In this document: positions 4,596 through 64,000 of the stretch, piece after piece
How the letters are laid out: each line of letters opens with the position of its first letter
Position numbering within the stretch: position 1 is the first letter of the stretch
Source: Bacilli bacterium
GTDB taxonomy: Bacteria > Bacillota_I > Bacilli_A > RF39 > UBA660
DNA length: 64,000 bases
Direction: 5' to 3'
NCBI GenBank assembly: GCA_036667875.1
Contig: JAVWTD010000001.1
Location: forward strand, 5,767-69,766
The notes under the pieces: model-generated
The model's input: only the letters and a program-made list of their open reading frames with translations
What the model was told of the DNA's origin: nothing
Database searches by the model: none
Made by a program: the position numbers and the translations under genes

Positions 4596-4698
4596 CCTTT
4601 TAGGAAAAATAACTCTATCTTTTGGAACATTAGGTGTTACTTATACTTCATGGTTTGTGTTTGATGAAGCTGAATGTCCAGAAGAAATTAATAACTAA
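4579..4698 (+). CDS. agrD: AgrD-like autoinducing peptide precursor (39 aa), absent from the ORF track
   Basis: GGAAGGAG RBS at 4564-4571, ATG at 4579. Translation: MKILADLLGKITLSFGTLGVTYTSWFVFDEAECPEEINN. It has an amphipathic leader, a hydrophobic core YTSWFVF, and an acidic Pro-containing tail DEAECPEE like the staphylococcal DEVEVPKEL tail. A Ser lies five residues before the acidic tail. Confidence 0.6.
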   Translation: MKILADLLGKITLSFGTLGVTYTSWFVFDEAECPEEINN

Positions 4699-4802
4699 GG
4701 AAATTTAAAAAGTTGCTTATCTTGCAAAAAAAAATTGATGATTGGAATTTTAATTCTTTTCATCAGTTTTTTTATATATAATACTTGTATTAAAAAGAAT
4801 TG

Positions 4803-6149: not shown

Positions 6150-6853
6150 AATATATCTAACTCCTTTTTATATTTTAATGATAATAGATCTACTTCTAAT
6201 CCTGTATCAAATTTTATACTTTTCTTTTTCTTATTGATAGCTACAATTCTTTTTAAATTAACAAAACCAGATTTGTGAGTTTGAACAAAATTTTCATCAA
6301 AATATCTTCTAACTTCAATTAATGTTTTGCTTATCTCATAAGTTCCATTATCTGTAACTATTTCTGTTTTTCTACTAACATTTTCTCTTGAAATATATAA
6401 AACACTTTGTTGTCTAAAATAATAATTTGTTGATTTAGTAATTATTTCTACTACATCGTTTTTTATATCATTTTTTATTATATAATTTAATACATTTTCT
6501 AATCTATTTTTTGTATCTTTATTCTTTGTTATAAAAGATGTGATAAATAAATCTAAAGTCAATATTTCTTCTGCTGATTTTTCGTGACTGGTTAACATAA
6601 TAATATGACTTTTTAAGTCACGACTTCTTATCTTTCTTGCTGCTTCAATTCCGCTGCCTGTTGGTGTTTCAATATCTAAAATATATATTTTGTTTTTATT
6701 ATTTAAATAAGTTGCATCGTAAAACACTTGATTATAGTCATTGAATTTAGAAATCTTATATTCTATTTTTTCTTTCAATAAATAATCGTCTATTACTTCA
6801 ATAACTTTATCAACATATATATCATTATCATCGCAAATAATAATTTCAAGCAT
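6131..6853 (-). CDS. agrA: LytTR-family response regulator (AgrA/ComE-like)
   Basis: MLEIIICDDNDIYVDKV... is a receiver domain with DD and K residues. The C-terminal ~100 aa (FRQQSVLYISRENVSRKTEIVT...FVQTHKSGFVNL) is typical LytTR. Confidence 0.8.
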   Translation of the reverse strand: MLEIIICDDNDIYVDKVIEVIDDYLLKEKIEYKISKFNDYNQVFYDATYLNNKNKIYILDIETPTGSGIEAARKIRSRDLKSHIIMLTSHEKSAEEILTLDLFITSFITKNKDTKNRLENVLNYIIKNDIKNDVVEIITKSTNYYFRQQSVLYISRENVSRKTEIVTDNGTYEISKTLIEVRRYFDENFVQTHKSGFVNLKRIVAINKKKKSIKFDTGLEVDLLSLKYKKELDILCHSQQ

Positions 6854-10280: not shown

Positions 10281-12086
10281 ATGGAACAAAAAGAAATAGT
10301 CGATAGTAACGATTCAACTACAAATCAAAATATAACTGAACCTAATCTAAGTAATGATAAAAAAAATGAGACAGATTTATCTGTTCAGCCACTTAATATT
10401 GATAATACTGTGGAAAACTTGTCATTAGACGAAAATAATCAAGAAAAAGATAATGAGTTGATTATGGATGCTGTGGAAAAAACTAATGTGGATGATAATG
10501 AAAATAGTTTTACTGTGGAAAACAATAATGTAGATGATGAAAAAAATACTTTTACTGTGGAAAACAATAATGTAGATAATGGAAAAAAGAAAAAAATGTT
10601 ATTTGTTCTTTTAATTATTGCTTTTCTTTTAATCTTTATTTTTGCGGGATATAAGGTTAATGAATTTGTTCAAAAGAAAAAAACGGAAAATAAAAAACCT
10701 CCAATTATAATTGATAAAGATGATGATAAAGACAAAGAAGATAATGATAAGTTTGTACCAGAAGTAGTTTCAAATATTGATGTCATTTCTGTTTCTAGTG
10801 CTATTAATGAAGGCGTTTTGGCTGATGATTATTATTTTTCAGACTCTGTTTTTATAGGGGATAATACTATTTCAAAATTTAATAGTTATCTTTCAACTAA
10901 ACCTAATGGATTTTTAGGGAAACCATTTATCTTATATGATTCAAAGTTAAGTACTAATACTTTAGTTTCAGAAGTTAATGAAAAGTCTAATCATCCAGTT
11001 TATAATGGCACTAAAATGCTTGTTGAAGATAGTGTCAAGTTAATGGGAGCGAAGAAAGTATTTATTAATTTAGGGCATAATGATATTTTAAGTTCTGGTA
11101 TTAATAATACATTATCAAATTATAAAACTCTAATTAGTAGGATAAAAACAAAGAATCCTAATACAAAAATTTTTATTATTAATGTTGGTTATATGTTTAA
11201 AGGAACAGAGACAAAAAAAATGAATAATACTTTAATAAGAGAATTAAATGAAAAACTAAAAAACAGTTCTGCTACATGGGGTGCAATTTATATAGATATG
11301 GCTCATACAATGATAGAAAGTAATGGTTATTTAAAAGAAGAATTTTATTCTGAAGAGTCTTTACTTATTAATAATCTTGGTTATAATGTATGGGTAAATG
11401 TTCTTAGAAGAATTGCTTCTACTCAGATTGAAGCTGAAATTTTAAGCACTGCTTCATCTTTATTAAAAGCTTGTGAAACTAGTCCTTCGTATGATGCATA
11501 TAACAAGGCAGTAAAGGCTGTTGATAGAGTTCCTGAAGGAATTGCTAAAGTAGACTTTAAAAACCGTTTAATCAAGGTCTTAGCGGTTATTGAAGCTAAT
11601 TATAGTAATAAACTTACTGAAATTAAAATAAACAATGTAGCAATCGCTCTTACTAGTGGTAACTATAATTATTCTTACAATGTTCCAAATGATGCTTCAA
11701 CTGTTAATATATCAGTTAAAAAAATAAGTAATAACGCAATTGTTGAAGGTGAGGGGAATGTTAATTTAAATTTAGGAGAAAATATTTTAAAAATCATCGT
11801 AAAAAATAATGGTGAGATTATTACATATACTTTGAAAATATATAGAGCCTATGATGATAGTATTTTAAAAGTTACTATTGATAATAAGGATATAGGTTTA
11901 GATACTTTATCTTTAACTGTTCCAGCACAAGTTTCTAGTGTAATTTTAAAAGTAACTCCAACTTATTCTGGGGCAACAGTAACAGGGGAAGGTACTTTGA
12001 GTTTGGTAACCGGTACTAATACCTTCAAATTCAAAGTTTATGAAAAGATTTATACTTTAACAATTATTAGAGAGGTTAGTTCTTAA
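10281..12086 (+). CDS. membrane-anchored SGNH-like protein with an Asn/Asp-rich N-terminal region and C-terminal beta-rich repeats; catalytic Ser apparently replaced (GDN)
   Basis: AGAGGTG RBS. Has N-terminal TVENNNVD repeats, a single TM (LFVLLIIAFLLIFIFAGY), FIGDNTIS (block I with N in place of S), NLGHNDI (block III) and DMAHT (block V). The C-terminal 200 aa show repeated Ig-like segments. Confidence 0.5.
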   Translation: MEQKEIVDSNDSTTNQNITEPNLSNDKKNETDLSVQPLNIDNTVENLSLDENNQEKDNELIMDAVEKTNVDDNENSFTVENNNVDDEKNTFTVENNNVDNGKKKKMLFVLLIIAFLLIFIFAGYKVNEFVQKKKTENKKPPIIIDKDDDKDKEDNDKFVPEVVSNIDVISVSSAINEGVLADDYYFSDSVFIGDNTISKFNSYLSTKPNGFLGKPFILYDSKLSTNTLVSEVNEKSNHPVYNGTKMLVEDSVKLMGAKKVFINLGHNDILSSGINNTLSNYKTLISRIKTKNPNTKIFIINVGYMFKGTETKKMNNTLIRELNEKLKNSSATWGAIYIDMAHTMIESNGYLKEEFYSEESLLINNLGYNVWVNVLRRIASTQIEAEILSTASSLLKACETSPSYDAYNKAVKAVDRVPEGIAKVDFKNRLIKVLAVIEANYSNKLTEIKINNVAIALTSGNYNYSYNVPNDASTVNISVKKISNNAIVEGEGNVNLNLGENILKIIVKNNGEIITYTLKIYRAYDDSILKVTIDNKDIGLDTLSLTVPAQVSSVILKVTPTYSGATVTGEGTLSLVTGTNTFKFKVYEKIYTLTIIREVSS

Positions 12087-12542: not shown

Positions 12543-12679
12543 TTTTCCACAATATATGTGGAAAACTATTAATTCGTTTGTAGTATAAAGACTTTTCCAC
12601 AGTATTAAAGCATAAATTTTAGTGAAAACAACACTAATATAAGAATAATTAATAGTATAATAATTTTTACTGTGGAAAA
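12543..12679. promoter_or_regulatory. cluster of four DnaA-box-like 9-mers (TTTTCCACA/TGTGGAAAA), including a perfect inverted pair, ~50 kb from oriC
   Basis: TTTTCCACA at 12543-12551 and TGTGGAAAA at 12557-12565 form the palindrome TTTTCCACAATATATGTGGAAAA. Further boxes: TTTTCCACA at 12593-12601 and TGTGGAAAA at 12671-12679. Confidence 0.45.
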
Positions 12680-14632
12680 CTTTCTTGTTTCTTGTTTATT
12701 TGTATTTTCAGATAATTTATTTTCTATTGTTTTTCCTTTGTTTATATTTTCTTTTTCTCCATTATAACCAATAACAAAATATTCTTCATTGTTATTTATG
12801 GATTTATAAATTAAATTCATTATATTTTCAGAAAGAATTTTAATAAATTCTACTTTATATTCATTTTCATCATTGATTTTATCGCTTGGCTTTAAAATAA
12901 TTTCTTTATCTTTTAAACTATATACGTTAATTATGTTTTCTAAAATATTTTTTCTAATTTCATTTTCACATTGGTAAAGATAAAGAGCATTTTTTATGTT
13001 ATATTTCTTTGCTTTTTTGAAACTTTTCGTTATATATTCTAAAGTCTTAAATGGTAATATTTTATCTATTTCATATAAAACATATTTTGAATTGAATTCT
13101 GAAATGTTTTTGTAAGGATTTAGTTCTTTTGAATAAATAATTTTACTTATTACTTTATCGATTAGATGTTCTAAAGTATCAAATTCATAAATTCCTTTAA
13201 AATCAGTTAAAGCATTTTCAAAATAATAAAATTTATCATTTTTAAGATAAACTAAAAAGAAATGTGGATCAGTAATTACTGTTTTATTATCACTATTAAT
13301 TTCAGTGCATATCACAAATCTTTTTACCTTTATATTATTTGCTTCTAAAAAGCAAGCTTCAAATTCAATTTGTTCATTACTACTTGCTACTTCTGAATTA
13401 AAAATATCAAGTGGATAGTTTTGAGAATATATTTTATTTAGTATAAAGTTTGTTGTTGATATGCTTTTTAAAAGTTGTGTGACTTCAATTTGAGTAGGAT
13501 TTATTTCATTTTTATGTTTAGAATAATATTTATTTAAAAAAGCTATGATTTCTGGATTATCGTATGTTATTTTTTTATTATTTCTTCCCTCAATTGATTC
13601 TAAAGCACCAAAAGGTATTTTATATGTTTCCGAGTCTATTTCAACAGTTGTTCCATATTCAATATTATTTGACATATATTTTAATAATGATTCTTCATCT
13701 ACAATTGAGTAACTTCTAAATATTTCTAAAATCTTTTTATTATTATATTTTTTGATAAGGTTAAAATTGTTTTCTATTTTAGTTTTATATATTTTTGCTT
13801 CTTTTTGTTCTAACTCTAAATCAAAAATTTCTTCGATTTTTTTTAATTTCTTATCATCAAAATTTCTATTTATAAATTTTCCTATTTCTTCGTAATAATT
13901 TTTAAATAGACAATCAAGTAATGAATATTTGTCACAGATACAATTATTTAAATAGATATCATTTTCATTTAAGCCTTTAATTTTTTCTGTGTTTAAAAAA
14001 TTTGTAATAGGAAATAATTTAAAATTATTTCCATCACTTATTCCATAGGTATTTAAGCCTATATTATTGTTATCAATTAAAATATTAAATAATATCATTT
14101 TTATATATTCACTTTTAATTATTTTTGAATTTTCAATTGAGAGGGGAATTTCTATTACTTCAATAATATCTTTTGTATTTTTTTCTTTATCCATTTGAAT
14201 AATTTTGTCTATTGTTTTACATTCTTTTTCATTTGATGTTAATAGTATATAATTTTTATTTTCATATTTTATTCTTTTTATATCTACAACATTTAATTCT
14301 AATAGTTTACCAATCTTCATTAAAGCAATCTCTAAATCATTTAAAGTTAGTGATTTATGTGTTTTTAAATATCCCACATTATTATCTACTTCTACTTTTA
14401 TATTTTTTTTGCTTTTTTCTATAATTTTTATTTCTATATTTTTATTTTGATTATATTCATTTTTTTTGTTTTCAATATAAATATGGTTTTTAATGCTTTC
14501 TTCGATTAAATCTTCAATTTCATTTTTTGTATATTCTTTCGATTTAATTTCATTTCTTATTTTATTTTTTTCATCTATTTTTAGTATTGATTTTTCTTTT
14601 AATTTTGTTTCTAAAAATTCTTGATTATTCAT
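12605..14632 (-). CDS. large hypothetical protein (675 aa) with a C-terminal transmembrane anchor
   Basis: Lys/Asn/Glu-rich. The C-terminal KFSTVKIIILLIILILVLFSL is a TM helix. No confident family assignment. Its last codons carry one of the DnaA-box-like motifs. Confidence 0.5.
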   Translation of the reverse strand: MNNQEFLETKLKEKSILKIDEKNKIRNEIKSKEYTKNEIEDLIEESIKNHIYIENKKNEYNQNKNIEIKIIEKSKKNIKVEVDNNVGYLKTHKSLTLNDLEIALMKIGKLLELNVVDIKRIKYENKNYILLTSNEKECKTIDKIIQMDKEKNTKDIIEVIEIPLSIENSKIIKSEYIKMILFNILIDNNNIGLNTYGISDGNNFKLFPITNFLNTEKIKGLNENDIYLNNCICDKYSLLDCLFKNYYEEIGKFINRNFDDKKLKKIEEIFDLELEQKEAKIYKTKIENNFNLIKKYNNKKILEIFRSYSIVDEESLLKYMSNNIEYGTTVEIDSETYKIPFGALESIEGRNNKKITYDNPEIIAFLNKYYSKHKNEINPTQIEVTQLLKSISTTNFILNKIYSQNYPLDIFNSEVASSNEQIEFEACFLEANNIKVKRFVICTEINSDNKTVITDPHFFLVYLKNDKFYYFENALTDFKGIYEFDTLEHLIDKVISKIIYSKELNPYKNISEFNSKYVLYEIDKILPFKTLEYITKSFKKAKKYNIKNALYLYQCENEIRKNILENIINVYSLKDKEIILKPSDKINDENEYKVEFIKILSENIMNLIYKSINNNEEYFVIGYNGEKENINKGKTIENKLSENTNKQETRKFSTVKIIILLIILILVLFSLKFML

Positions 14633-27575: not shown

Positions 27576-28298
27576 TTAATCACCTAAACTTTCTAAATAA
27601 ATTTTACTAAAATTTATGTCTTGAATTATTGATATTTCATTTAGTTTTGCTAAATTTAAAATTGATAAAAATGTAACTATAATATATTCTTTTGAATAAA
27701 CATCAAAAAGACTTGTAAATTCAACCTTTTTCTTTTCCTTAAGAATAAATTTAATTTGATTACATCTTTCTTTTATAGAGTATTCTTTATTAGTTATTTT
27801 GGTTTCTAATGGTTTGTCAAGTTCTTTTCTTTCTATCATTTTATTAAAAGCTGACATTAAATCATTAATGTTAAAGTTTTCAGTCAGATCTTTTGTTTTG
27901 TTATCATATATATTTAAATCTGTTGCTTTTTTTGTAAATATTTGATTTCTTTCTTTTTCAAGATTTTTTAATTTTTGTGTTACTTCTTTATATTTTTCAT
28001 ATTCTAAAAGTTTTTTTATCAAATTTTCTCTAGGATCTTCTTCAAATTCATCTTCTTCTAAAATTTTCTTTTTAGGCAATAAAATATATGATTTTATTTC
28101 TATCAGTTCAGCAGCCATTACTAAATATTCTGAAGCAATATTTAAATTTAATTGCTCCATAAGCTTTAAATAATTCATGTATTGTTTTGTTACATCATTA
28201 ATTGATACATCAAATATATCAACTTTAGATTCTTTGATTAGATGTAATAATAAATCTAAGGGTCCTTCAAAATCTTTTATTTCAATAACATAATTCAT
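27576..28298 (-). CDS. scpA: segregation and condensation protein A
   Basis: FEGPLDLLLHLIKESKVDIFDVSINDVTKQY. Confidence 0.85.
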   Translation of the reverse strand: MNYVIEIKDFEGPLDLLLHLIKESKVDIFDVSINDVTKQYMNYLKLMEQLNLNIASEYLVMAAELIEIKSYILLPKKKILEEDEFEEDPRENLIKKLLEYEKYKEVTQKLKNLEKERNQIFTKKATDLNIYDNKTKDLTENFNINDLMSAFNKMIERKELDKPLETKITNKEYSIKERCNQIKFILKEKKKVEFTSLFDVYSKEYIIVTFLSILNLAKLNEISIIQDINFSKIYLESLGD

Positions 28299-31280: not shown

Positions 31281-32270
31281 CTAATTATCAATTAAGTTTA
31301 AATTTTCAAGCATTATTCCTGTACCTTCTGCTACACAAGTTAAGGGGTTACTTGCAACATAAACAGGAACTTTTAGTTCTTGCTCTAATAATCTATCTAG
31401 ACCATCTATTAAAGCTCCTCCTCCAGTTAATACAATTCCTTTATCAATTATATCTGCTGATAATTCTGGTGGAGTTATTTCTAATATATTTTTTACATTT
31501 CTTATAATTTCATCAACAGATTCAAACAGTGCTTCTTCGACCTCTTCTGATGAAATGACTATTGTTTTTGGTAAACCTGTAACAATGTCTCTTCCTCTTA
31601 CATCCATTTTTTCATTTTTTTTATTTGAAAATACTGTACCAATTGTTAGTTTTATTTTTTCAGATGTCGTTTCACCTATAAGAAGTTTGTATTTGTTTTT
31701 TATATATTTTGTTATTTCTAAATCAAATGTATTTCCAGCTATTTTTATACTTGCACTGTTTACAATGCCTCCTAGAGACAATACAGCTATATCTGTAGTT
31801 CCTCCACCTATATCAATAATCATGTTTCCACTTGGCTTAGATATATCTAATCCTGCTCCTATTGCTGCAACTTTAGGTTCTTCTTCAATAAAAACTTTTC
31901 TTGCTCCTGTTTTCTCAGTTGCTTCTCTAATTGCATTTTTTTCAACTTGAGTAATATTAGAAGGACAGCAAATAAGTATTCTTGGCTTTGAGAATGGATT
32001 TTTTCCATTTATTTTTTTTATGAAACTATTTAGCATTATTTCTGTTAATTCAAAATCTGCAATTACCCCATCTTTCATAGGTTTAATGGCTTCAAATTTT
32101 CCTGGAGTTTTCCCTAGCATTTCTTTTGCTTCTGTTCCAACTGCTAATGATTTTTTTGTTTCCAATTCAATAGCAACGACACTGGGCTCATTTAAAACAA
32201 TTCCTTGACCTTTTATATAAATTAATACATTAGCCGTTCCTAAATCTATTCCTATGTCATGAAAAAACAT
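31281..32270 (-). CDS. mbl: rod-shape protein MreB/Mbl
   Basis: DIGIDLGTANVLIY..., actin-fold ATPase motifs. Lies downstream of spoIIID, as for Bacillus mbl. Confidence 0.9.
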   Translation of the reverse strand: MFFHDIGIDLGTANVLIYIKGQGIVLNEPSVVAIELETKKSLAVGTEAKEMLGKTPGKFEAIKPMKDGVIADFELTEIMLNSFIKKINGKNPFSKPRILICCPSNITQVEKNAIREATEKTGARKVFIEEEPKVAAIGAGLDISKPSGNMIIDIGGGTTDIAVLSLGGIVNSASIKIAGNTFDLEITKYIKNKYKLLIGETTSEKIKLTIGTVFSNKKNEKMDVRGRDIVTGLPKTIVISSEEVEEALFESVDEIIRNVKNILEITPPELSADIIDKGIVLTGGGALIDGLDRLLEQELKVPVYVASNPLTCVAEGTGIMLENLNLIDN

Positions 32271-32561: not shown

Positions 32562-33248
32562 TTATTCCTTTATATTATTTATGTTTTTATCAAAATAGAA
32601 TTCAGGATCAACTATTTTGTCATCAACAATTAATTCAAATAACAAATGTGATTTTAAATCTTTATTAAGATTAGATTCTCCACTTGAAGCAATTTTTTGA
32701 CCTTGTTTAACAACATCGTTTTGTTTTACTAAAACGTCTTTTACGCTTTGATAAATACTAATTATTTTATTTTGATGTTCTATTTCGATTACTGTTCCAA
32801 CTAAATCATCTTCTTTTACACTTATAACTTTACCATCTAAAATAGACACTATATCAAAATTATCTACTCCTCCATATGCGATTGAACAGTTTTGCATATA
32901 TGTTGATTCATAAAAAATAATTGAATTTTCTTGATTCAGCTCTTCATCTTTATAGTCATAAAAATCTTTTAAAACTTTAACATCTTTACTTAGAAATGGT
33001 TTATTAATTTTTATTTCATTATTAGAAACCATTACTTCATCATCAAAAACTGTTTTATTTACATAATTTAAATCTTTTGGTTTTGATTTTTCTGTTTCGG
33101 ACAAATTATTATTTGTATAAAAAATCAATGAAACAAAGGCTGTAAAAATTAGTAAAACTGTTGCTATTTTTGCTGATTTTCTTACTCTATATTTTTTCAT
33201 CTTTTCACCTCTACTTATATTTTGTAAAGTTTTTATTTTTTTATACAA
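32562..33248 (-). CDS. spoIIQ: membrane-anchored degenerate M23/LytM-domain protein (SpoIIQ-like)
   Basis: N-terminal TM. The LytM fold reads GTVIEIEHQNKIISIYQSV...GQKIASSGES...SHLLFEL, with the HxH catalytic motif degenerated to SHLLF, as in SpoIIQ. Sits between spoIID and spoIIID. Confidence 0.55.
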   Translation of the reverse strand: MYKKIKTLQNISRGEKMKKYRVRKSAKIATVLLIFTAFVSLIFYTNNNLSETEKSKPKDLNYVNKTVFDDEVMVSNNEIKINKPFLSKDVKVLKDFYDYKDEELNQENSIIFYESTYMQNCSIAYGGVDNFDIVSILDGKVISVKEDDLVGTVIEIEHQNKIISIYQSVKDVLVKQNDVVKQGQKIASSGESNLNKDLKSHLLFELIVDDKIVDPEFYFDKNINNIKE

Positions 33249-34144
33249 GATATTTTGGTGTTTTGATAATAATATTTTAAGATCTCATCATATTTATAAT
33301 TTTTAAGTGCCATAGCTTGGGCACCGTACTGACTCATACCAACACCGTGACCATATCCTTTTGATACTATTTTTATAATATCATTTTCTGAATTTATCTT
33401 AAAATAAGTCGAACGTAAATTTAAAATTTCCATTACTTTAGATGCTTGAAATTCTACATTATTAATAATAATTTTTTTGTTTCTTCCTGTAGAGGTAGTT
33501 TCAATATAATTGACATTTAGAATAGAAGAAGAGGGGAGAGAAAGTTTTTTAAAAAATTCAGATTTGCTAAAAAAAATGTTTTCAGTAAAAACTGGTGATA
33601 TATCATCCCATTTTGAATCAACACTTTTTAGATATGGTTTTTCTGTTCCAAATATTTCTTCAGAATTTTCAGTTTTTCCAGTACTCGTAGAAAAAAAGAA
33701 AGTATATGCTATTTCTCCTTTATATTCTAAATATTGTCCTTCTGTTTTTTGTACAGCTTCCTTAATCTTATTAATATTGTTGATATAGTCATTTTTCCAA
33801 GTTTTTTTTAAATATTCATAATCTAAATATACTTGATTCATTACTGTATCAACTAAATCATAATCTTTTCCTTTGTTTTCATTTATTTTAATTAAAGCGT
33901 AACTTCTTGCAGCAACTGCTTGAGCTTTAAGGGCTTCAATATCAAAAGATACGGGCATTTCACCAGCTAGAACACCTACTATGTAATCTTCAAAATAAAC
34001 TTTATCAATTTTATCAGCTCTTTTTATTCTTACTTTAAAAGAATCAATATGACTAAATGATATTTCTTCTTTTTTAAAAAAAATATTTACAACTATAAAT
34101 GGTATAAGAATTATTAGCATTGAAAAAAGCAGTACTTTTTTCAT
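33233..34144 (-). CDS. spoIID: stage II sporulation protein D (SpoIID/LytB lytic transglycosylase family)
   Basis: YIVGVLAGEMPVSFDIEALKAQAVAARSYAL... and GYGHGVGMSQYGAQAMA are SpoIID-domain signatures. N-terminal TM. Confidence 0.8.
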   Translation of the reverse strand: MKKVLLFSMLIILIPFIVVNIFFKKEEISFSHIDSFKVRIKRADKIDKVYFEDYIVGVLAGEMPVSFDIEALKAQAVAARSYALIKINENKGKDYDLVDTVMNQVYLDYEYLKKTWKNDYINNINKIKEAVQKTEGQYLEYKGEIAYTFFFSTSTGKTENSEEIFGTEKPYLKSVDSKWDDISPVFTENIFFSKSEFFKKLSLPSSSILNVNYIETTSTGRNKKIIINNVEFQASKVMEILNLRSTYFKINSENDIIKIVSKGYGHGVGMSQYGAQAMALKNYKYDEILKYYYQNTKISCIKK

Positions 34145-38244: not shown

Positions 38245-39315
38245 CTATTTTATTACTATCTGATATGGGTTTTCAATAGTGCCATATCCTTTAAAAAGAA
38301 CATCTTTATTTAATGTAAAGACGGGTCTTACGTAAAACTGTTCATTTTCAATTGCACTTTCAATTTCTCCGTTATTTCTTATAATTAAATTTGAATTACT
38401 TCTAGAATCTATTGTAAAATAATCATATTTTGCCTTTAACCAATTTAAAGGGGCACACAATTTGCTTTCACTGATTGTTTCTTTACACTTTTTATTTTTT
38501 GTTGTATTTAAATATTCATTTACATTTAATAGAGAAATTGTAGAGTAAAAAAGTTGTTCTTCTATTCTTTCATCTTTTTTATAAATATATTTTTTGTATT
38601 CATTTTCTACAAAATTACGATTATTTCTTAATTTATTTGTATCCTCACTAGCATTTAAATAAAATGATACAGTATTATCTTCAAACGATATAATTTTTAA
38701 ATTTTGTTTATATTTGCTCCAAGTCATTTTAGTTAAAGGTTCGTTAATTATAATTTTAATATATCCATTGTCATCTATTGAAACAATTCTGTAAACTGTA
38801 TCATCAATTATTAAATAATTATTTGGATTTTCTCCTTTAAAATAATAATTACCGTTATCCTCTTTATAAATTCCATCAATTTCATGAGCTAAAGAAACAT
38901 TAATTCCAGCGAATTTTACTGATTGCTTGATTTTACAATTATCTGTTTCTTCTATTAAAATATCATCATTATCATATTTTTTAGTGATACACCATTCTTT
39001 ATCGTTAGCAATGATTTGTATTTGTCCATTTTTACTTAAATATATTTTCCCTTTTTGTGGAAGTTTAGATTCAATAATTAGTCCTTCTTCAACAATATTC
39101 CAATTTTCAATTGTAAACACTTTATATTCTTCTTTAAATTCTCTTGTGGATAGATAATATTTATCCACTTCATTTATTACTTTGTTTACATTTTCATTTA
39201 ATAATTTTTTATATTTTTGTTTTATTTTAATCTTTGCAAATGGATACATAATTAATATACTCATTAATATTATTATACTTATACTTAATATAAAAATTTG
39301 TTTTTTTTCTTTCAT
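38245..39315 (-). CDS. N-terminally anchored extracytoplasmic hypothetical protein
   Basis: TM at residues 8-26; 330-aa ectodomain rich in Tyr/Asn with two conserved Cys pairs. An AGAAAG-TATAT-CTTTCT hairpin terminator lies just downstream (38228-38250). Confidence 0.45.
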   Translation of the reverse strand: MKEKKQIFILSISIIILMSILIMYPFAKIKIKQKYKKLLNENVNKVINEVDKYYLSTREFKEEYKVFTIENWNIVEEGLIIESKLPQKGKIYLSKNGQIQIIANDKEWCITKKYDNDDILIEETDNCKIKQSVKFAGINVSLAHEIDGIYKEDNGNYYFKGENPNNYLIIDDTVYRIVSIDDNGYIKIIINEPLTKMTWSKYKQNLKIISFEDNTVSFYLNASEDTNKLRNNRNFVENEYKKYIYKKDERIEEQLFYSTISLLNVNEYLNTTKNKKCKETISESKLCAPLNWLKAKYDYFTIDSRSNSNLIIRNNGEIESAIENEQFYVRPVFTLNKDVLFKGYGTIENPYQIVIK

Positions 39316-40490: not shown

Positions 40491-41744
40491 TTATACTTCT
40501 TCAATTTGAATTTTAGCACCAACATTACTTAATTTTTCAATAATGTTTTCATAGCCTCTTAATACATGTTCAATATCTGTCACAATAGTTGTTCCTTCGG
40601 CTCTTAATCCTGCCAATATTAGGCATGCTCCTGCACGGAGATCAGTCGCTTTAACTACTTTCCCTTTTAAAGAAGAAGGTCCTGTTATCAATGCTTTTTT
40701 ATCTTTAACAACTATATTTGCACCCATTTCATTAAGAAAAGGGATATTTTGAAATCTATTTTCATAAATTGTTTCTTCTAAGATAGATTCGCCATTACAT
40801 TGAGTTAAAAGCGTTACAATTGGTTGTTGTAAATCTGTTGGAAATCCAGGGTATCCTAGTGTTTTGATATTTACTGAATTTAAAGTTTTACAGTGAGAAA
40901 TATTGATAAAATCTTCACCAATTTCCATTTTTACACCCATTTCTTCTAATTTAAAAAGAAGGTTTTGAATGTGGTCAGGAATTATGTTAGTTATTTTTAG
41001 ATTATCACCTAATAGTGCACCTGCAATAACATAAGTTCCAGCTTCAATTCTATCTGGAATTACTTCTATATAAGTTTTATGAAGTTTGGTTACTCCTTCA
41101 ATCACAATCTTACTGGTTCCTGCTCCTTTTATATTTGCTCCCATATTATTTAAATATGTAGTAACATTTACTATTTCAGGTTCCTTAGCTGCGTTTTCTA
41201 TTATTGTTTTTCCTTTTGCTTTTACTGCAACTAGTATAGTATTAATAGTTGCTCCAACACTAGGCATATCCAAATATACATTAGAACCAATTAGTTCTTT
41301 TGCATCAATTATAAACTTATTATCTATTTCTTGGACAGTAGCACCTAATGCTTTAAATCCTTTTAATGTTTGATCTATAGGTCTTGCACCAATGGAACAT
41401 CCACCTGGAAAATACATTTCAACATGCTTGTATTTCCCAAGAAGAGCTGACATAAAATAATAAGATGCTCTTAATCTTTTTGAAATACTTTCAGGAATTT
41501 CCTTATTTTCAATCGATGAAGAGTCTATTTCCATTCTTTTACTATCTCTTTTAACTTTTGCCCCTAAAAATTCAAGAATATCATTTAACGCTTCAATATC
41601 AGAAATATTAGGTATATTATCTATTATTGCTGTTTCGTCACATAAAATAGATGCTGGTACAAGGGCTACTGCACTATTTTTTGAACCTCCAATGTTGATT
41701 TGTCCTGTTAAAGTTTTATTTCCTTCGATTTTTATTTGTTTCAT
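40491..41744 (-). CDS. murA: UDP-N-acetylglucosamine 1-carboxyvinyltransferase
   Basis: IEGNKTLTGQINIGGSKNSAVALV..., catalytic Cys loop PGGCSIGARPID. Confidence 0.9.
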   Translation of the reverse strand: MKQIKIEGNKTLTGQINIGGSKNSAVALVPASILCDETAIIDNIPNISDIEALNDILEFLGAKVKRDSKRMEIDSSSIENKEIPESISKRLRASYYFMSALLGKYKHVEMYFPGGCSIGARPIDQTLKGFKALGATVQEIDNKFIIDAKELIGSNVYLDMPSVGATINTILVAVKAKGKTIIENAAKEPEIVNVTTYLNNMGANIKGAGTSKIVIEGVTKLHKTYIEVIPDRIEAGTYVIAGALLGDNLKITNIIPDHIQNLLFKLEEMGVKMEIGEDFINISHCKTLNSVNIKTLGYPGFPTDLQQPIVTLLTQCNGESILEETIYENRFQNIPFLNEMGANIVVKDKKALITGPSSLKGKVVKATDLRAGACLILAGLRAEGTTIVTDIEHVLRGYENIIEKLSNVGAKIQIEEV

Positions 41745-42608: not shown

Positions 42609-42756
42609 TCTATCACCATCTCAATTATATATTTTTTTTTGTAAAAAGGCAAACATAATAAAAATAAAAATGAATTAATTTCTAAAATCAAATCATTTTA
42701 TCTTTTATATATCGCTTATTATAATTATTTCCCATAAAACATTGAATTTTTAGCGC

Positions 42757-43958: not shown

Positions 43959-45440
43959 TTAATAAAATGCGTAAGGATTAATAAATGCTGAATAATTAAA
44001 TCCTGGATGTGATGAACCTGAATACATTTCAAAGTGTAAATGACTTCCCGAAGTTTGACCTGTTAGTCCTACAAAGCCTATTAACTGACCACGTTCTACT
44101 GGGAATCCAGCTTTTACACCAGGTGCAATAGCAGAAAGGTGAGCGTATCCACTACCATATCCGTTATTATGATTTATAGCAATGAATGTACCATATGTTC
44201 CATATCCATACGTTGCCATTGTAACAGTACCGTTGTTAGCGGCATAAACAGGTGCACCATAATAATTTGTTATATCTAAAGCTTGATGGAATGAACAAGA
44301 TCCACTAAAACATCTATTTCCGAATCCAGATCCTATAGTAGTACTAGATGTTGGCCATGTCCAATATTTACCACCAACACCTGATATATATTTAGTTCCT
44401 ATTAGAACTATTTTATTAGTTGATGGTTTAAGTACTGATTGTTCTAATACTTCATTTTTTAAAATAAAGCCATTTTTTGAAACAATATTTTGTTTAATTC
44501 TTGATAGTCCATTTTCTCCATTTTGAATAGTTTCTTCATCACCTGCTAAAACAGAATCAGAAGGTCTTTCTTCAACACTATAATACAATTCTTGATCAGT
44601 AACTTTAGTAATAGAAGAAACTACATCCACCACAGGATCAGCGTATGAAACTGAAACTACTTGACCTGGATAAAGAATATTGTCAATGGATGTAAATTCA
44701 GGATTTGAAACTAAAAATTCTTGAACACTTATCTTATTATCTTTCGATACCGATTCAATAGTATCATTTTGTTGCACGATATATTCTTTGTTTTTTTCTG
44801 TAGTTGAAAATAGAATGTATTGTGATAATTCTTCTGAATTATTATAAATAATTTCATTGACAGGAATATTTGTCTTTTTGCTAGTAATTATATTGTCAAC
44901 ATATATACTGTCATATTTTAAGCCTGTTGTTTCTATTTCTTTTTGAGTCTCATCTAAATATGAATTATAATTTTCTTCTCCAATAAAAGCAATTATTGTA
45001 TTTTTAATTGATTCTTTGAAAATTGAATTATTTGTTACATATATAACATTATTTTCTATTTTTTGATTACCATCTTTTGTTTGAATCTCTTTTTTGATAG
45101 TATATTGATATCCTTTTATTGTAAAAGGTTTAAGATTTTGTAATTTTTTATAGACATCTTTAACTTCATCTGTTTTGTTATTGAAAGTAATAATCTTTTT
45201 AATATCAAGACCATTAGGGATATCAACTTTTTTAACATTATATTTATCTTTTATATTAGATCCTTCTTTGTCTATATAATCTTCTAATTCTTTTTTATCT
45301 TTTATTACTCCTAATATTTGATCATCTAAATACACTTGATAAAAATTATTAGGACTTGTTCTTTGGTTATTATTTATCCCAATAAAGCATACAAACATAC
45401 TTACAACAATTACAAATATCCATGGAATTACTTTTTTCAT
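43959..45440 (-). CDS. membrane-anchored LysM + M23 family metallopeptidase
   Basis: N-terminal TM. The LysM-like block is YIVQQNDTIESVSKDNKISVQEF. The C-terminal M23 domain has HQALDI...GYGSGYAHLS...GQTSGSHLHFEM (intact HxxxD and HxH). Confidence 0.75.
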   Translation of the reverse strand: MKKVIPWIFVIVVSMFVCFIGINNNQRTSPNNFYQVYLDDQILGVIKDKKELEDYIDKEGSNIKDKYNVKKVDIPNGLDIKKIITFNNKTDEVKDVYKKLQNLKPFTIKGYQYTIKKEIQTKDGNQKIENNVIYVTNNSIFKESIKNTIIAFIGEENYNSYLDETQKEIETTGLKYDSIYVDNIITSKKTNIPVNEIIYNNSEELSQYILFSTTEKNKEYIVQQNDTIESVSKDNKISVQEFLVSNPEFTSIDNILYPGQVVSVSYADPVVDVVSSITKVTDQELYYSVEERPSDSVLAGDEETIQNGENGLSRIKQNIVSKNGFILKNEVLEQSVLKPSTNKIVLIGTKYISGVGGKYWTWPTSSTTIGSGFGNRCFSGSCSFHQALDITNYYGAPVYAANNGTVTMATYGYGTYGTFIAINHNNGYGSGYAHLSAIAPGVKAGFPVERGQLIGFVGLTGQTSGSHLHFEMYSGSSHPGFNYSAFINPYAFY

Positions 45441-47252: not shown

Positions 47253-47348
47253 ATTTTCACCTCACTACCATTATACTATATTTTTTGATAATTGTCTTTA
47301 TAAAAAAAAATAAAAATTGTTGGGAAATGATTATTATAGTTCATATAA

Positions 47349-53993: not shown

Positions 53994-56150
53994 TTACTTT
54001 TCAATTCTAAACATTATTTGGTACATATTCTCAAAATCAAAATCTTCAGTATTTATATTATATCCTAGTCTTTTTATTTTTGAAACACATTCTTTAATAG
54101 CATCCATAGCAAGATTCATATTATTATTTGATTGCAATTGATTTGATACTATATTTTGTGTCATATAACTAGACATATTGTTTTCAGGAGTTTTATTTTG
54201 TTGTACTTGTTGATTATTAACCTGATTAACGTTTTGATTTGTAAATTGATTTTGTATTATAGGTTCTGAGTAATTATTTTGTGTATAAGGCATTTGTTGT
54301 GTTTTAACTTCAAATTGTTCTTGTGTTGGTAGTCCAAATTGATTAACAGGATTGTTATTTTTATCAATATTTTCCATCATTACTGGTTGAAAAAATTGAT
54401 TGAATTTATTTTCTTCTTTTGGTTCTTCTTTAAATTGACTAACTTCATCTAAAGATTTTAAAACAGGTTGGTTTTCTTGATTTATATTCATGGCATTTAT
54501 TAAATTATCTGACATATTAAATTCAAATGGATTACTGTCAAGTTTAAATTCTTCATTTTTATTTGTTTCTTCTTGTATAGGTAAACTAAAGAATTTTCCT
54601 GGTTGAAGTTCCTCATTTTCTTCTTCGTAAGATTTTAATGTAGTATTACTAGGTTTAAGAAGAGGACCATTATTTGAAAAAATATCAATTGCTTCATTTG
54701 TTTGTTCAGATAAATATTCTGGTTGATTAAATTCTTTGCTTTCATTTATATCAACAGCTTCATTTTGTATTTTATCTATATCCATAAATCCAGGATTTAT
54801 AAAATTATTATTATTTGATTGAATATTAACATTTGGTTCTTCTATTCCTAAATTATTTGTATTAGGTAAAGTGTTGTTAGTATTAGTAAAATCATTTTGA
54901 TTGTTTTCTACAATTGGAGTTACTGGAATACTAAAATCGTTTGATATTGTATTATTTGCCATATCAAATGGATTAAATTCTTTAGGAGCACTTGTTTGTT
55001 GATTATTTTGAAAATAATCAGGAGTCATGAAATTATTATTTTGAAAATTATTTATTGGTTCATTGTTCATTGTTGGTTCCTCTTCTATAATAATAACTGG
55101 TTCTTCATTTTTGTTATTATAACTTTCTTCTTTTACAACTTCTTCAATTGTATTATTATATGGATTAAAAATATCAATATTTTTTTCTACATTTAATTTA
55201 TTTTCAGTTTTTTCTTCTAATAAATTAGGAAATATTGTTTCTTCATTACCTTCAAAAATAGGTACTGCGTTTTCTTCCTCATTATTTTCATTAAAACTAT
55301 TGAAGTCAAAATTATTATTATAATTTTTAATAACATTTTTTGGATAATTATAGTTATTATCGAAAAAAGATTTTTTTTCATCTTCATTTACATTACTGCT
55401 TGGAACATTAAATTCTGATATTGCATTATTTTGATTATCATTAGTAGTGTAAGTAGTATTTTCAAAAACATTTTTTTCCTCAGAATTGATATTATTTTCT
55501 GGTTTAATAATTTTATCTACATTATTGTTTCCAAAAATATCTTCCCCTTTTAAAATTTTAGCAATTTCATCATCAGCTTTTCTAACTGTTAATCTTTCAT
55601 TTATGATTTTTGTCAACATTTTCCTTTGAATTATTGGATTTGTTAATCTAAGTAAAGATCTTGCATGTCTTTCTGAAATTTTTTCTTCAAGAAGAGATTC
55701 TTGAATTTCATCATCAAGATTAAGAAGTCGTAATTTATTTGCAACTGTAGATTGTGTTTTGCCTAATTTTGTTGCAAGTTCTTCTTGAGTAAGAAATCCC
55801 ATATCAAGTATTTTTTTATAAGATATAGCTTCTTCTATTGGTGTTAAATCTTTTCTTTGAACATTTTCTATTAAAGCTACTTCAGCACTATCTTTATCAT
55901 TTAGTTCGGTTACAACTGCTGGAATATAATTTTTTCCTGCTAATAAAGATGCTTTAAATCTTCTTTCACCTGCAATTATTTCAAATTTATCGCCCATTTT
56001 CCTAACAACAATAGGTTGAATAACCCCATGTTCTCTTATTGAATCAGATAATTCATTTATTGAATCTTCATTAAATTTGATACGCGGTTGAAATCTATTA
56101 GGTAAAATATCATTTATATCTAAATTAACAATTTTTTTCTCTAAATCCAT
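53994..56150 (-). CDS. noc: ParB-family protein with Noc-like C-terminus and a ~460-residue Asn/Gln-rich low-complexity insertion
   Basis: N-terminal 200 aa are canonical ParB (PNRFQPR, GERRFKAS, HTH TQSTVANKLRLL). C-terminal INTEDFDFENMYQIMFRIEK parallels B. subtilis Noc LNTEEEEFEEYIQLTIRIPK. The middle ~460 aa are N/Q/E-rich with no globular signature. Position (after rsmG) matches noc. Confidence 0.7.
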   Translation of the reverse strand: MDLEKKIVNLDINDILPNRFQPRIKFNEDSINELSDSIREHGVIQPIVVRKMGDKFEIIAGERRFKASLLAGKNYIPAVVTELNDKDSAEVALIENVQRKDLTPIEEAISYKKILDMGFLTQEELATKLGKTQSTVANKLRLLNLDDEIQESLLEEKISERHARSLLRLTNPIIQRKMLTKIINERLTVRKADDEIAKILKGEDIFGNNNVDKIIKPENNINSEEKNVFENTTYTTNDNQNNAISEFNVPSSNVNEDEKKSFFDNNYNYPKNVIKNYNNNFDFNSFNENNEEENAVPIFEGNEETIFPNLLEEKTENKLNVEKNIDIFNPYNNTIEEVVKEESYNNKNEEPVIIIEEEPTMNNEPINNFQNNNFMTPDYFQNNQQTSAPKEFNPFDMANNTISNDFSIPVTPIVENNQNDFTNTNNTLPNTNNLGIEEPNVNIQSNNNNFINPGFMDIDKIQNEAVDINESKEFNQPEYLSEQTNEAIDIFSNNGPLLKPSNTTLKSYEEENEELQPGKFFSLPIQEETNKNEEFKLDSNPFEFNMSDNLINAMNINQENQPVLKSLDEVSQFKEEPKEENKFNQFFQPVMMENIDKNNNPVNQFGLPTQEQFEVKTQQMPYTQNNYSEPIIQNQFTNQNVNQVNNQQVQQNKTPENNMSSYMTQNIVSNQLQSNNNMNLAMDAIKECVSKIKRLGYNINTEDFDFENMYQIMFRIEK

Positions 56151-56234
56151 AACATCCCTCTATTCTATATACTATAATACTATATATTTTCTAAAAACTC
56201 AATATTATTTGGGAAATATTTCCCAAAAAAAAAC

Positions 56235-56939
56235 CTATAATGGTTTTTTCTTTATTTCTGCATATTTTCTTGGATAAATTTTATTGGTTTCTTTTATTTT
56301 TTTATATTTTAGTAAACACCTATTACTATTTTCAAAAGGTAATTTAAATTCTATTTTTTCTTCTATATTAATAGAAAGTTTATCACATGCATTACTAGTT
56401 TTTATTTCTTCATCACTAATATTTGCTTTCATAGGTATAAAATACTTATTTACTTTAACTAGAGGAACACAAATCTCCATTAAAATAGGAAGCGAAGCAA
56501 CTGCTCTTGCTGTAACAACATCAAATTGTTCTTTATTTTTTACTCCAAATTCTTCACTTCTTGTATGAATTGCAATAATTTCAGTTAATTCTAATTCTTT
56601 TATTACTTCATTTAAGAAATTAATCCTTTTATTTAATGAATCTATAAGTACTACTTTTATGTGTGGAAACAGTATTTTAATAACAAGCCCTGGAAATCCA
56701 GCACCACTTCCAACATCACATAAACTTTCTACAGTATTTAAGTCAATAATTTGATTCATAGTGGCTGAATCATAAAAATGTTTTAAATATACTTCTTTTA
56801 TTTCAGTGATTCCTGTTAAATTCATACTTTTATTCCATTCAACTAGAATTTCGTAATATTTTTTTAGTTGATTTAACTGATTAATAGAAACATGAATATT
56901 AATATCTTCTAAAGCTTTTATAAAATCATTTTCTTTCAT
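56235..56939 (-). CDS. rsmG: 16S rRNA (guanine527-N7)-methyltransferase RsmG (GidB)
   Basis: NLTGITEIKEVYLKHFYDS..., DVGSGAGFPGL SAM motif. Confidence 0.85.
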   Translation of the reverse strand: MKENDFIKALEDINIHVSINQLNQLKKYYEILVEWNKSMNLTGITEIKEVYLKHFYDSATMNQIIDLNTVESLCDVGSGAGFPGLVIKILFPHIKVVLIDSLNKRINFLNEVIKELELTEIIAIHTRSEEFGVKNKEQFDVVTARAVASLPILMEICVPLVKVNKYFIPMKANISDEEIKTSNACDKLSINIEEKIEFKLPFENSNRCLLKYKKIKETNKIYPRKYAEIKKKPL

Positions 56940-60176: not shown

Positions 60177-60710
60177 TTATTTTATCCTCCCTTTAAAAAT
60201 CAATGCTAATCCTATATATTTGTACCATTGCTTTGGATAAAGTAAAACTTCTAGTGAGACAGCTTTATCTACTAGACTAACAATCCAAGACTCTAAATAG
60301 ATAGGTGGTTTTATTGTTAATGGAAACATATGCTTTTCAATAATATCCTTAATTTTTTCATCACTAAACTCTGGAAAATTAATTTCTGTATTTTTATATG
60401 CTTCTTTTGCATGTATAAAACCGTGAAGATTTTTTATTCCCTTTTTAGGATTCGTTTGCCAATCATCACAATAGAAATCATGAAGAAGTCCTCCAATTGC
60501 AGTTTTTCTACAATCAAGATGCATAATTTTAGCGATTTTATAAGAATAAAAGGATACAAACAAAGAATGAGTATAAACAGATCTATTTTCATGGTGGTGA
60601 AATGTCAATCTTTTTTTAAATTCATCATTATTAAGAATAATATTAACAGCTTCTTGATACTCTTTATCAAACTTACTTTTTAAATTTTCAATTATTTTTT
60701 CTTCCTTCAC
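60177..60710 (-). CDS. HD-domain phosphohydrolase
   Basis: H...H and LLHD motifs (HSLFVS...GGLLHDF). 177 aa, inserted between jag and mnmE. Confidence 0.5.
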   Translation of the reverse strand: MKEEKIIENLKSKFDKEYQEAVNIILNNDEFKKRLTFHHHENRSVYTHSLFVSFYSYKIAKIMHLDCRKTAIGGLLHDFYCDDWQTNPKKGIKNLHGFIHAKEAYKNTEINFPEFSDEKIKDIIEKHMFPLTIKPPIYLESWIVSLVDKAVSLEVLLYPKQWYKYIGLALIFKGRIK

Positions 60711-62625: not shown

Positions 62626-62671
62626 ATATAATCATTCTCCTTAATTAAAAAACCACTTTTCAGTGGAATTA

Positions 62672-62794
62672 TTAATGAGTTAAAACTTTACGTCCTTTTC
62701 TTCTTCTTCTTTTAACGATTGAAGATTTAACACGAGCTAAGAAACCTATTTTTTTACTTCTTCTTCTAGTATTTGGTTGAAATGTTCTTTTCAT
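62672..62794 (-). CDS. rpmH: 50S ribosomal protein L34 (absent from the ORF track)
   Basis: Reverse-strand ATG at 62794: [40 protein letters not shown] (40 aa), the classic L34 sequence. Confidence 0.85.
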
Positions 62795-63278
62795 TTTTTA
62801 CACCTCCTGAACTTAAATTTCGGTTGCTTTATACATTATATATTCAAAAGCTTGTTTTGTCAATAAATTTATATGGATTGTGGAAAAAAAATATGATTAG
62901 TATGTGATAATGTCTTAAGTGGTGGTACTGGCTAATTATATGGATTGTGGAAAAAACCTATGAAATTTACTTTTGCACAGTAAAAAAAATATTAATGTGG
63001 AAAATTGTTGTTGTATTAATTAATTATAATGATGCAATCCACATTTTCTGTGGAAAACTTAATTATGCACTTGTGTATAACCATTTATCAACATTTTTGT
63101 GGATTACTTTATAGTATCCATTGTTTTTAAAGTCTTTTTTTTCCACAATTTTATTTTTTCGTAATAATATAATATTTCCCAATGTTTTCTTTATAATATA
63201 AGTGCTTTTTTTTACAAATGATATTGTAATTTTAAAGAAAATAATCTAAAATGGGATTAGACGAAGTGAGGTGATGAA
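62795..63278. other. chromosomal replication origin (oriC) between rpmH and dnaA, with at least seven DnaA boxes and an AT-rich unwinding region
   Basis: TGTGGAAAA at 62879, 62946, 62996 and 63049. AATCCACAT at 63036. TGTGGATTA at 63098. TTTTCCACA at 63139. A 21-bp direct repeat TTATATGGATTGTGGAAAAAA occurs twice (near 62866 and 62935). A very AT-rich stretch at 63150-63240 precedes the dnaA RBS. Confidence 0.75.
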
Positions 63279-64000
63279 ATGGGACTTGATTATAATTCGA
63301 TATGGAATAAGTTTTTAGAAAAAATAAAAACAGAAATTGAACCCATTAATTACGAAACTTGGTTTGAGGATACTAAACTAATTGAGATTAAAGAAGGTAT
63401 AGCTAAAATACAAGTAAATATGCCTCTTGCTAAAAAGCACATAAAAGAAATATATAATAATAAAGTTACTTATATATTTAATAACATAACAGAGTCTAAT
63501 TTTACAATAGAATACTTCACAGAAGATGAAATAGAAACGAATATAATTATAGATGTGGACAAAATAGGAATTCCAAAAGATAATAATTTTGAATCTAATC
63601 TTGACCCAAACTATACATTTGATACATTTTTACTTGGTAAATCAAATAAATTTGCTAAAATGAATGCAGTTGCAATAGCGGAAAGACCTGGGCAGATATA
63701 TAATCCTTTATTTATATATGGACCAAGCGGGGTAGGAAAAACTCATCTGATGCACTCAATAGGCAATTATATTGTTAAAAATTCAAATAAAAAAGTACTC
63801 TATGTAACAAGCGAAAAATTTGTTGATGACTTTGTTAAGATTTTTATAGCAAAGAAAGAAAAAGAAAACTACAAATCAACAGATGAATTTAAAGAAAAAT
63901 ACAGAAACATTGATGTTCTGATTATAGATGATATCCAATATCTTCAAGAAGCCACTAAATCACAACAAGAATTTTTTAATACATTTAATGATTTATACAG
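63279..64000 (+). CDS. dnaA: chromosomal replication initiator DnaA (5' part; truncated by the window end)
   Basis: GAGGTGA RBS, ATG at 63279. MGLDYNSIWNKFLEKIKTEIEP..., AAA+ Walker A GPSGVGKTHLMHSIGN, DVLIIDDIQYL Walker B. Confidence 0.9.
   Translation, partial: MGLDYNSIWNKFLEKIKTEIEPINYETWFEDTKLIEIKEGIAKIQVNMPLAKKHIKEIYNNKVTYIFNNITESNFTIEYFTEDEIETNIIIDVDKIGIPKDNNFESNLDPNYTFDTFLLGKSNKFAKMNAVAIAERPGQIYNPLFIYGPSGVGKTHLMHSIGNYIVKNSNKKVLYVTSEKFVDDFVKIFIAKKEKENYKSTDEFKEKYRNIDVLIIDDIQYLQEATKSQQEFFNTFNDLY

Follow-up and report, generated by a model that had tools for sequence, protein, structure and literature searches.

A Noc-type ParB protein with a long acidic linker and no membrane-targeting helix, encoded near the replication origin of an uncultured gut Bacilli bacterium

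Noc is the model for a cytidine triphosphate (CTP) switch that links the binding of DNA to the binding of the membrane, and its amphipathic helix is regarded as indispensable for nucleoid occlusion. In a 64-kb stretch of contig JAVWTD010000001.1 from a Bacilli bacterium (the whole analysed stretch of 64,000 nucleotides, hereafter the window), the gene at 53994-56150 encodes a ParB-family protein whose two folded ends are separated by several hundred disordered residues. This raises the questions of whether the reading frame is genuine, whether the protein is a Noc or a chromosomal ParB (Spo0J), and what such a linker might do. By sequence comparison, the protein is a Noc orthologue and an undescribed Noc variant. 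The only product name at NCBI is 'ParB/RepB/Spo0J family partition protein', neither a helix-less nor a long-linker Noc was described in the literature searched, and the architecture of Noc is canonical according to a 2025 survey of the ParB-CTPase fold. The explanation that we prefer, with a probability of about 0.6, is a helix-less noc orthologue with an acidic, motif-bearing linker in uncultured low-G+C gut Bacilli, working by the mechanism outlined in the last section.

Architecture and identity of the Noc-like protein

The layout of the protein, with Pfam matches and predicted local distance difference test (pLDDT) scores from an AlphaFold2 model built on a 45-sequence family alignment, is as follows.

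53994..56150, minus strand: complete open reading frame (ORF) of the long-linker Noc-type ParB, 718 amino acids plus stop, unbroken frame, ATG start
55857..56135, minus strand: ParB_N CTP-binding domain, residues 6-98 (Pfam PF02195, E 8e-32)
55554..55853, minus strand: HTH_ParB DNA-binding domain, residues 100-199 (Pfam PF17762, E 2e-31)
54132..55535, minus strand: disordered acidic linker, residues 206-673, 468 amino acids (composition, pLDDT, no repeats)
53997..54128, minus strand: Noc-type C-terminal (dimerisation) domain, residues 675-718 (one helix and a beta-hairpin, pLDDT 85-90)

Residues 1-205 and 675-718 were modelled with confidence, and nearly all of residues 208-673 remained below a pLDDT of 50; the score rose slightly at 391-400 and 451-470, and a short helix was modelled at 458-464. 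A Pfam scan of the whole protein at E values up to 1 returned nothing beyond ParB_N and HTH_ParB, so no domain was detected in the linker. The CTP motifs FQPR (residues 20-23), GERRFKAS (61-68; nucleotides 55947-55970) and ENVQR (95-99) are conserved with respect to the Noc structure 7NG0, and the ability to bind CTP is almost certainly retained. The initial annotation, made without database searches, had proposed a ParB fold with an arginine patch, a disordered linker and a Noc-like C-terminal peptide. The PF02195 match with GERRFKAS in place and the low pLDDT of the linker agree with the first two proposals. As to the third, the C-terminal 44 residues can be aligned over their full length, without a gap, to the C-terminal 44 of a genuine Bacillus Noc (64% positives, E 4e-7), and this C-terminal domain is conserved in the clade alignment.

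The start of the gene is preceded by a ribosome-binding site (GAGGGA, 56160-56155, ahead of the start at 56150), and an N-terminal extension of the 718-residue protein is impossible because an in-frame TAG lies four codons 5' of the ATG. AT-rich, low-complexity DNA could be error-prone, and an artefact or a decaying gene, in which a frameshift, a chimera or a junk insertion has fused a ParB N terminus to a Noc C terminus, therefore had to be weighed. No computed result backs this reading, and we give it next to no credence. The identical 718-residue protein was found in four NCBI metagenome-assembled genomes (MAGs) and one Logan assembly, in the context mnmE-mnmG-rsmG-gene-uvrB-radical SAM. 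These five independent copies are 0 to 4 nucleotides apart from the window, and all differences are synonymous, at third codon positions and within the linker, with no change in length. The gene has four between-strain single-nucleotide polymorphism sites, all of them synonymous and in the linker, which we counted as a sign of purifying selection. Likewise, the same in-frame arrangement of N- and C-terminal domains occurs in hundreds of related proteins: every protein among the best 120 database hits has 440 to 847 residues, and the best 150 representatives of 50%-identity clusters have 291 to 982 (median, 562). Conserved motifs inside the linker, described below, also speak against an artefact. 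As the identical ORF is present in five assemblies and its architecture is family-wide, a frameshift, a chimera or a strain-variable repeat expansion is excluded. The frame read in the initial annotation thus held, with no frameshift or assembly error in any of the five assemblies, no length variation among strains and the linker insertion present in all relatives.

Comparisons with both candidate families favored Noc over Spo0J. The best NCBIfam model was nucleoid_noc (TIGR04285), matched in two stretches with 273.3 bits. The top three sequence matches in the PDB were all Noc (7NG0 and 7NFU, 208-209 bits; 7OL9, 186 bits), ahead of the best Spo0J (1VZ0, 173 bits), and a fold search ranked Noc over Spo0J in the same order. 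The ParB N-domain is 53% identical to that of Noc 7NFU/7NG0. In an alignment with the genuine Noc and Spo0J from one Bacillus locus (L055), the specificity stretches were of the Noc type (GKTQS, ANKLR, and SERHAR), the Spo0J counterparts being GKSRP, ANHLR, and SMGHGR. Residues Q133, K139 and R161, all three invariant in the clade, correspond to Q173, K179 and R201 in Caulobacter ParB numbering, and the fourth specificity position (184, Lys in Noc) is N144 here. Previous research has shown that Q173 and R201 read bases of the Noc-binding site (NBS) and that a Lys at 179 or 184 is permissive, one of the two being enough (Jalal et al. 2020, PMC7383237). Because a single Lys at either position is sufficient, we regard the set of NBS specificity residues as complete despite N144. 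The parS-type specificity residues were not present in the protein, with Q in place of R173 and R in place of G201, and the ParA-binding motif LG(R/K)GL was not found in the N terminus (MDLEKKIVNLDINDILPNRFQPR).

The gene lies directly after rsmG, as noc does, and in one relative (L047, from CAG:710) the order is still noc-like gene, soj, spo0J, which fixes the orthology to noc. With the Noc proteins of B. subtilis and Geobacillus thermoleovorans (PDB 7NFU, 7NG0, 7OL9, and 6Y93), the protein shares the CTP-binding domain and helix-turn-helix (47-53% identical), the Q/K/R residues for the NBS half-site TATTTCCC, the C-terminal domain, the post-rsmG position near oriC and, in relatives of the window, genuine NBS palindromes. 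Unlike Noc, it has no 26-residue N-terminal stretch, its family has a tether of 137-558 amino acids rather than the approximately 25 residues of Bacillus Noc (L055), half-sites occur in its own promoter, and its score is under the TIGR04285 cut-off. Features in common with chromosomal ParB/Spo0J are the fold, the CTP motifs GERR and ENxQR, an origin-proximal gene and sites beside or inside neighbouring genes. In contrast to ParB/Spo0J, the protein is without LG(R/K)GL, has Noc-type specificity residues and a C-terminal domain of other sequence, and is accompanied neither by an adjacent parA nor by parS sites (none in the window and only one weak hit in the clade loci).

The missing helix and the acidic linker

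Residue 6 of the protein aligns with residue 27 of 7NFU, and its start corresponds to approximately residue 27 or 28 of Noc. The roughly 26 N-terminal residues of Noc that are not in the protein include the amphipathic membrane-targeting helix, which is under CTP control and is required both for recruitment to the membrane and for nucleoid occlusion (PMC4331003; PMC8429893). All 19 canonical Bacillaceae-type Nocs recovered begin with MK..FSR(L/F)FG; a start with FSRxFG was seen in none of the 150 family representatives. Neither the loss of the helix nor the linker motifs and promoter half-sites described below had featured in the initial annotation.

The linker of the window protein (residues 206-673) consists of 22% Asn, 13% Glu and 7% each of Phe, Ile, Pro and Gln, with a net charge of -50. 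The initial annotation had described approximately 460 residues without a simple repeat, which agrees with the 468 residues measured here and with Tandem Repeats Finder and repeat scans of the linker DNA, in which neither tandem nor long direct repeats were found. An origin by tandem or simple repeat expansion was rejected, as the scans gave only 17- to 20-nucleotide chance arrays. In 37 species-level relatives, the linker is 137 to 558 residues long (median, 292) and contains 18% D+E versus 5% K+R. It is net negative in all 149 representatives analyzed, with a median of -0.135 per residue.

The same annotation had also suggested that a prion-like, N/Q-rich linker could drive condensation, i.e., phase separation of the clamp on DNA. 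ParB condensates are a topic in the literature, the window linker is 29% N+Q, and residues 598-677 reach 46% N+Q with six charged residues. This stretch is, however, an extreme case among the representatives, of which only 6 of 149 attain at least 40% N+Q in some 80-residue stretch. Across the 37 species, Asn makes up 3 to 22% of the linker, and this share drops as the flanking G+C content rises (Spearman -0.59, p = 1e-4). As Asn content is not conserved and tracks G+C content, the prion-like composition can be attributed to low G+C; in this comparison, Asn richness is a lineage-specific by-product of 24% G+C and not a selected property. The net charge of -50 and the acidic linkers throughout the family also disagree with a condensate, since a strongly acidic character in every linker disfavors homotypic condensation. 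What is conserved is length, negative charge, disorder and five short motifs instead of the composition. We therefore did not retain the suggestion of a condensate-forming linker, which seems very improbable.

The five motifs form islands in a constant order amid linker sequence that is otherwise unalignable.

54963..54977, minus strand: FNPFD, residues 392-396 (alignments; pLDDT rise at 391-400; clade form FNPF(D/K))
54906..54929, minus strand: IPxxPI(E/V)E, residues 408-415 (alignments; P409 invariant)
54747..54797, minus strand: NPGFMDIDKIQNEAVDI, residues 452-468 (clade form NPGFMDIxKIExxAxDI; P453 and I468 invariant)
54579..54608, minus strand: LQPGKFFSLP, residues 515-524 (clade form (L)KPGKFFxL; F520 and F521 invariant)
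54516..54533, minus strand: NPFEFN, residues 540-545 (alignment)

Invariant or near-invariant columns of the linker in the 45 sequences are P409, N452-M456, I461, A465, D467, I468, K519, F520, F521 and L523. The predicted short helix at 458-464 lies inside the NPGFMDIDKIQNEAVDI motif and is amphipathic and acidic. Among the 150 distant representatives, a KFF-type motif was present in 102 and an NPGF-type motif in 73.

Two of these motifs were considered as possible membrane binders. The core [KR]FF[GSN]L of one of them resembles the core of the Noc helix, FSRFFGL. Direct membrane binding by KPGKFFxL is nevertheless unlikely, given its Pro and acidic flanks and a hydrophobic moment of 0.23-0.26 versus 0.45, and a relocated membrane helix was kept only as a low-probability idea. 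The NPGFMDI... helix was ruled out as a membrane binder by its net charge of -3.

Promoter sites and the origin-proximal neighbourhood

Sites were scored as the 8-bp half-site TATTTCCC or the full 16-bp NBS TATTTCCCGGGAAATA, with 827 kb of clade DNA for comparison and promoter counts taken over 47 loci. Three features of the window are relevant here.

56174..56202, minus strand: promoter-like TTGAGT-17-TATTAT, at the clade-conserved -35/-10 position
56208..56227, no strand assigned: everted half-site pair TTTGGGAAATATTTCCCAAA, a 20-bp palindrome, just upstream of the -35
63173..63183, plus strand: single half-site TATTTCCCAAT, between the cluster of DnaA boxes and the start of dnaA; weak evidence alone, with similar sites in relatives

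The half-site TATTTCCC was strongly concentrated in the 250 nucleotides upstream of the noc-like gene, with 81 copies in the 47 loci (1.72 per locus) compared to approximately 0.03 per 250 nucleotides elsewhere. At least one upstream copy was present in 41 of the 47 loci and at least two in 34. The commonest layout consists of two direct copies 21 to 23 nucleotides apart, of which the proximal one starts 11 nucleotides before TATAGTATnAT, i.e., in the -35/-10 spacer; an everted pair occurs in seven loci, including the window. As a control, Bacillaceae noc promoters carried parS half-sites in 17 of 20 cases and NBS half-sites in 2 of 20, one of which (L050) is a member of the clade. This placement of half-sites in its own promoter suggests that the noc-like gene may be autoregulated.

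Full sites are found in the relatives. The 827 kb of clade DNA contained 28 NBS at 0 to 2 mismatches, including six perfect copies. Most lie 270 to 310 nucleotides upstream of the gene, within the 3' end of rsmG; the peptide that they encode there is NIS(R/Q)EI, spelled with the rare codons TCC and CGG. Perfect or near-perfect rsmG sites were present in L018, L028, L030, L036, L046, L047 and others. The use of rare codons suggests selection for a site within the coding region. The rsmG of the window has lost this site and reads AATATTAGTGATGAAGAAATA (NISDEEI) at 56403-56423. Across the window, ATTTCCCAA was enriched (7 observed versus 1.5 expected; none of 100 shuffles reached 7). A half-site peak 2.3 to 2.75 kb upstream was set aside as mostly coding coincidence in mnmG (TGNI and MGNN peptides). 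Two further intergenic half-site loci, 42726-42736 and 47320-47328, may be extra targets or chance; one is upstream of a fructose-bisphosphate aldolase gene, in a possible promoter spacer on the minus strand (TTCAAT-17-TATAAT), and the other is between whiA and a downstream 148-residue ORF that precedes dnaB.

The noc-like gene is approximately 7 kb from oriC, which lies at the right end of the window (62840-63300). The origin contains five DnaA boxes (TGTGGAAAA/TTTTCCACA) at 62879, 62946, 62996, 63049 and 63139 (span, 62879-63147), between rpmH (approximately 62669-62794, minus strand) and dnaA (ATG at 63280), and about 10 related loci have one to four half-sites among their oriC DnaA boxes. 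Away from oriC, the gene order is rnpA, yidC, an HD protein gene, mnmE, mnmG, rsmG, the noc-like gene, uvrB, a radical-SAM/SPASM gene, a holin-family gene with four transmembrane segments, and lgt. The HD-domain protein (177 amino acids, 60177-60710), between yidC and mnmE, occupies the usual position of jag/khpB in Firmicutes.

In agreement with the initial annotation, uvrB takes the place of soj-spo0J downstream, and the ParAB pair was missing from the origin-proximal 64 kb by both motif search and tblastn. No ORF with a deviant Walker-A motif (KGGxGK(S/T)) and no tblastn match to genuine Soj was found in the window, nor was a second ParB, either by GERR or by tblastn with genuine Spo0J. Among the relatives, sampled 10 kb on each side of the noc-like gene, soj-spo0J were not found in 44 of 48 loci. 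The four that keep them nearby (L047, L025, L030, and L036) all have a long linker and no helix, and therefore this architecture predates any loss of soj-spo0J. The order in L036, as well as in L025 and L030, is rsmG, noc-like gene, uvrB, holin-like gene, lgt, orf309, soj, spo0J. This order suggests that a uvrB-lgt block first entered the space between noc and soj in this clade, and that the loss or relocation of soj-spo0J in most members came later. No homologue of orf309, soj or the two ORFs that follow spo0J in L036-type loci was found in the window.

The sites that chromosomal ParB would use are similarly scarce. No parS was found in the window at up to 2 mismatches, and hits at 3 mismatches were at chance level. 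The clade loci contained one weak parS hit in 827 kb, compared to 60 in the Bacillaceae loci. In five Bacillaceae loci (L060, L064, L070, L071, and L078), a conserved NBS-like sequence, (C/A)ATTTCCCGGGAAGTA, with 2 mismatches occurs at approximately 11230-11250; by comparison with L055, this position would fall inside soj of canonical noc-soj-spo0J loci. In the same five loci, parS occupies two positions, one upstream of noc and the other at the end of spo0J.

Could the protein be a Noc turned centromere protein? In lineages without soj-spo0J, a clamp at NBS or half-sites around oriC would then take over the origin-organizing role of ParB, for example in SMC loading or origin positioning. The absence of ParA and a second ParB from the window, and of soj-spo0J from the 10-kb flanks of 44 of 48 related loci, is in line with this proposal, as is the near lack of parS in the clade. 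Furthermore, the sites crowd the 8-kb stretch that separates the gene from oriC, some of them among the DnaA boxes, and there are nearly none in the 10 kb downstream. ScpA is encoded in the window (27576-28298), and an SMC complex, which normally needs a loader, probably exists. However, soj-spo0J may lie elsewhere in the genome, as the search covered the window and the 10-kb flanks of relatives, and the four relatives that have soj-spo0J already possess the long linker and lack the helix. Moreover, the protein has no ParA-binding LG(R/K)GL motif, and SMC loading is not a known activity of Noc. Overall, we consider a centromere function unlikely.

Further genes of the window bear on the organism itself. 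MreB (31281-32270), a SpoIID-like protein (33233-34144), a MurA-type enzyme (40491-41744) and an M23/LysM/G5 peptidase (43959-45440) are encoded, and because of these cell wall and MreB genes the organism is probably walled and rod-shaped; it probably also has an SMC-ScpAB complex. The relatives are gut MAGs named 'Bacilli bacterium', 'uncultured Tenericutes', Clostridium sp. CAG:710, Acholeplasma sp. CAG:878 and Candidatus Fimihabitans, the last of which NCBI files under Mycoplasmatota. Elsewhere, the window contains an agr-like quorum-sensing cluster (3993-6853) of AgrB (3993-4595, plus strand), a GHKL histidine kinase (4803-6149, minus strand) and a LytTR regulator (6131-6853, minus strand). 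The ORFs at 12605-14632 (675 amino acids) and 38245-39315 (356 amino acids) had no Pfam match at E values up to 1e-5.

A proposed partner-docking clamp and its implications

In the mechanism that we prefer for the helix-less Noc orthologue, the dimer would bind NBS or half-sites beside its own gene and near oriC, and where such sites lie in or beside its own promoter, binding would lead to transcriptional autoregulation. CTP would close the N-domains into a clamp whose lumen is very wide and negatively charged, and the linker motifs would dock one or more partners; this docking would most plausibly make up for the direct contact with the membrane that was lost. As the lipid-binding helix is gone family-wide, these motifs suggest themselves as the means by which the DNA-bound clamp may be linked to something else. 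The identity of the protein, its domain layout, the missing helix, the conserved motifs and the site placement can be read directly from sequence; CTP clamping, autoregulation and partner docking are inferred.

Precedents for parts of this mechanism exist. KorB of plasmid RK2 (PDB 8QA8/8QA9) is a ParB-family CTP clamp with operators in promoters that represses with a partner, and it is a precedent for a ParB-like clamp regulating through partner docking. It differs from the noc-like protein in its low identity (26%), plasmid location, other operator and known partner, KorA. SlmA of Escherichia coli, a functional analogue, is a site-specific nucleoid occlusion factor that contacts a division protein and not the membrane, and it offers a possible model for partner-mediated occlusion. 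SlmA differs from the noc-like protein in its unrelated TetR fold and in having neither a CTP switch nor a long stretch of disorder.

Several observations weigh against the proposed mechanism. The TIGR04285 score of 273 bits is below the curated cut-off of 315, and the amphipathic helix that defines Noc is not present. Homology is the only basis for the proposed CTP binding, clamping and possible role in division. A full NBS was not found in the window at up to 3 mismatches beyond chance-level hits; the window holds only the everted pair and scattered half-sites, and an everted arrangement is at odds with how a Noc dimer is known to sit on NBS. In addition, the half-site in the promoter spacer of the window has degenerated and the pair is found upstream of the -35, so that any regulation may be positive or negative, and another factor could in principle bind the promoter motif. 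Searches of other ORFs and of neighbouring genes gave no partner for the linker motifs. None of the other ORFs of 60 amino acids or more in the window and the 48 related loci (approximately 900 kb) contains these motifs, which leaves no clue to a shared partner. Likewise, no conserved neighbouring gene was found as a partner: the downstream neighbours vary among relatives, and uvrB-holin-lgt is frequent there, not universal.

A more far-reaching version of the preferred mechanism would have Noc rebuilt, in a widespread lineage of walled gut Bacilli, as a CTP-gated clamp that itself has no more contact with lipid, in which an acidic tether of 50 to 170 nm recruits membrane or divisome partners through its docking motifs, and which, loaded at NBS-type sites around oriC, also replaces a lost ParABS at the origin. 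We regard this combination as quite unlikely.

For annotation, these results call for caution, as an Asn-rich, 'prion-like' composition at 24% G+C is largely mutational bias. For the Noc family, more than 150 clusters (50% identity) keep the CTP domain, NBS specificity and the dimerisation domain yet drop the helix. The half-sites in the promoter provide a simple and testable case of autoregulation by a Noc-type protein. The family is also a natural experiment on how an enormous, negatively charged DNA-storing lumen affects a ParB/Noc clamp, on whether nucleoid occlusion may work through partners instead of direct lipid binding, and on whether a Noc-type protein may serve at the origin where soj-spo0J are missing.

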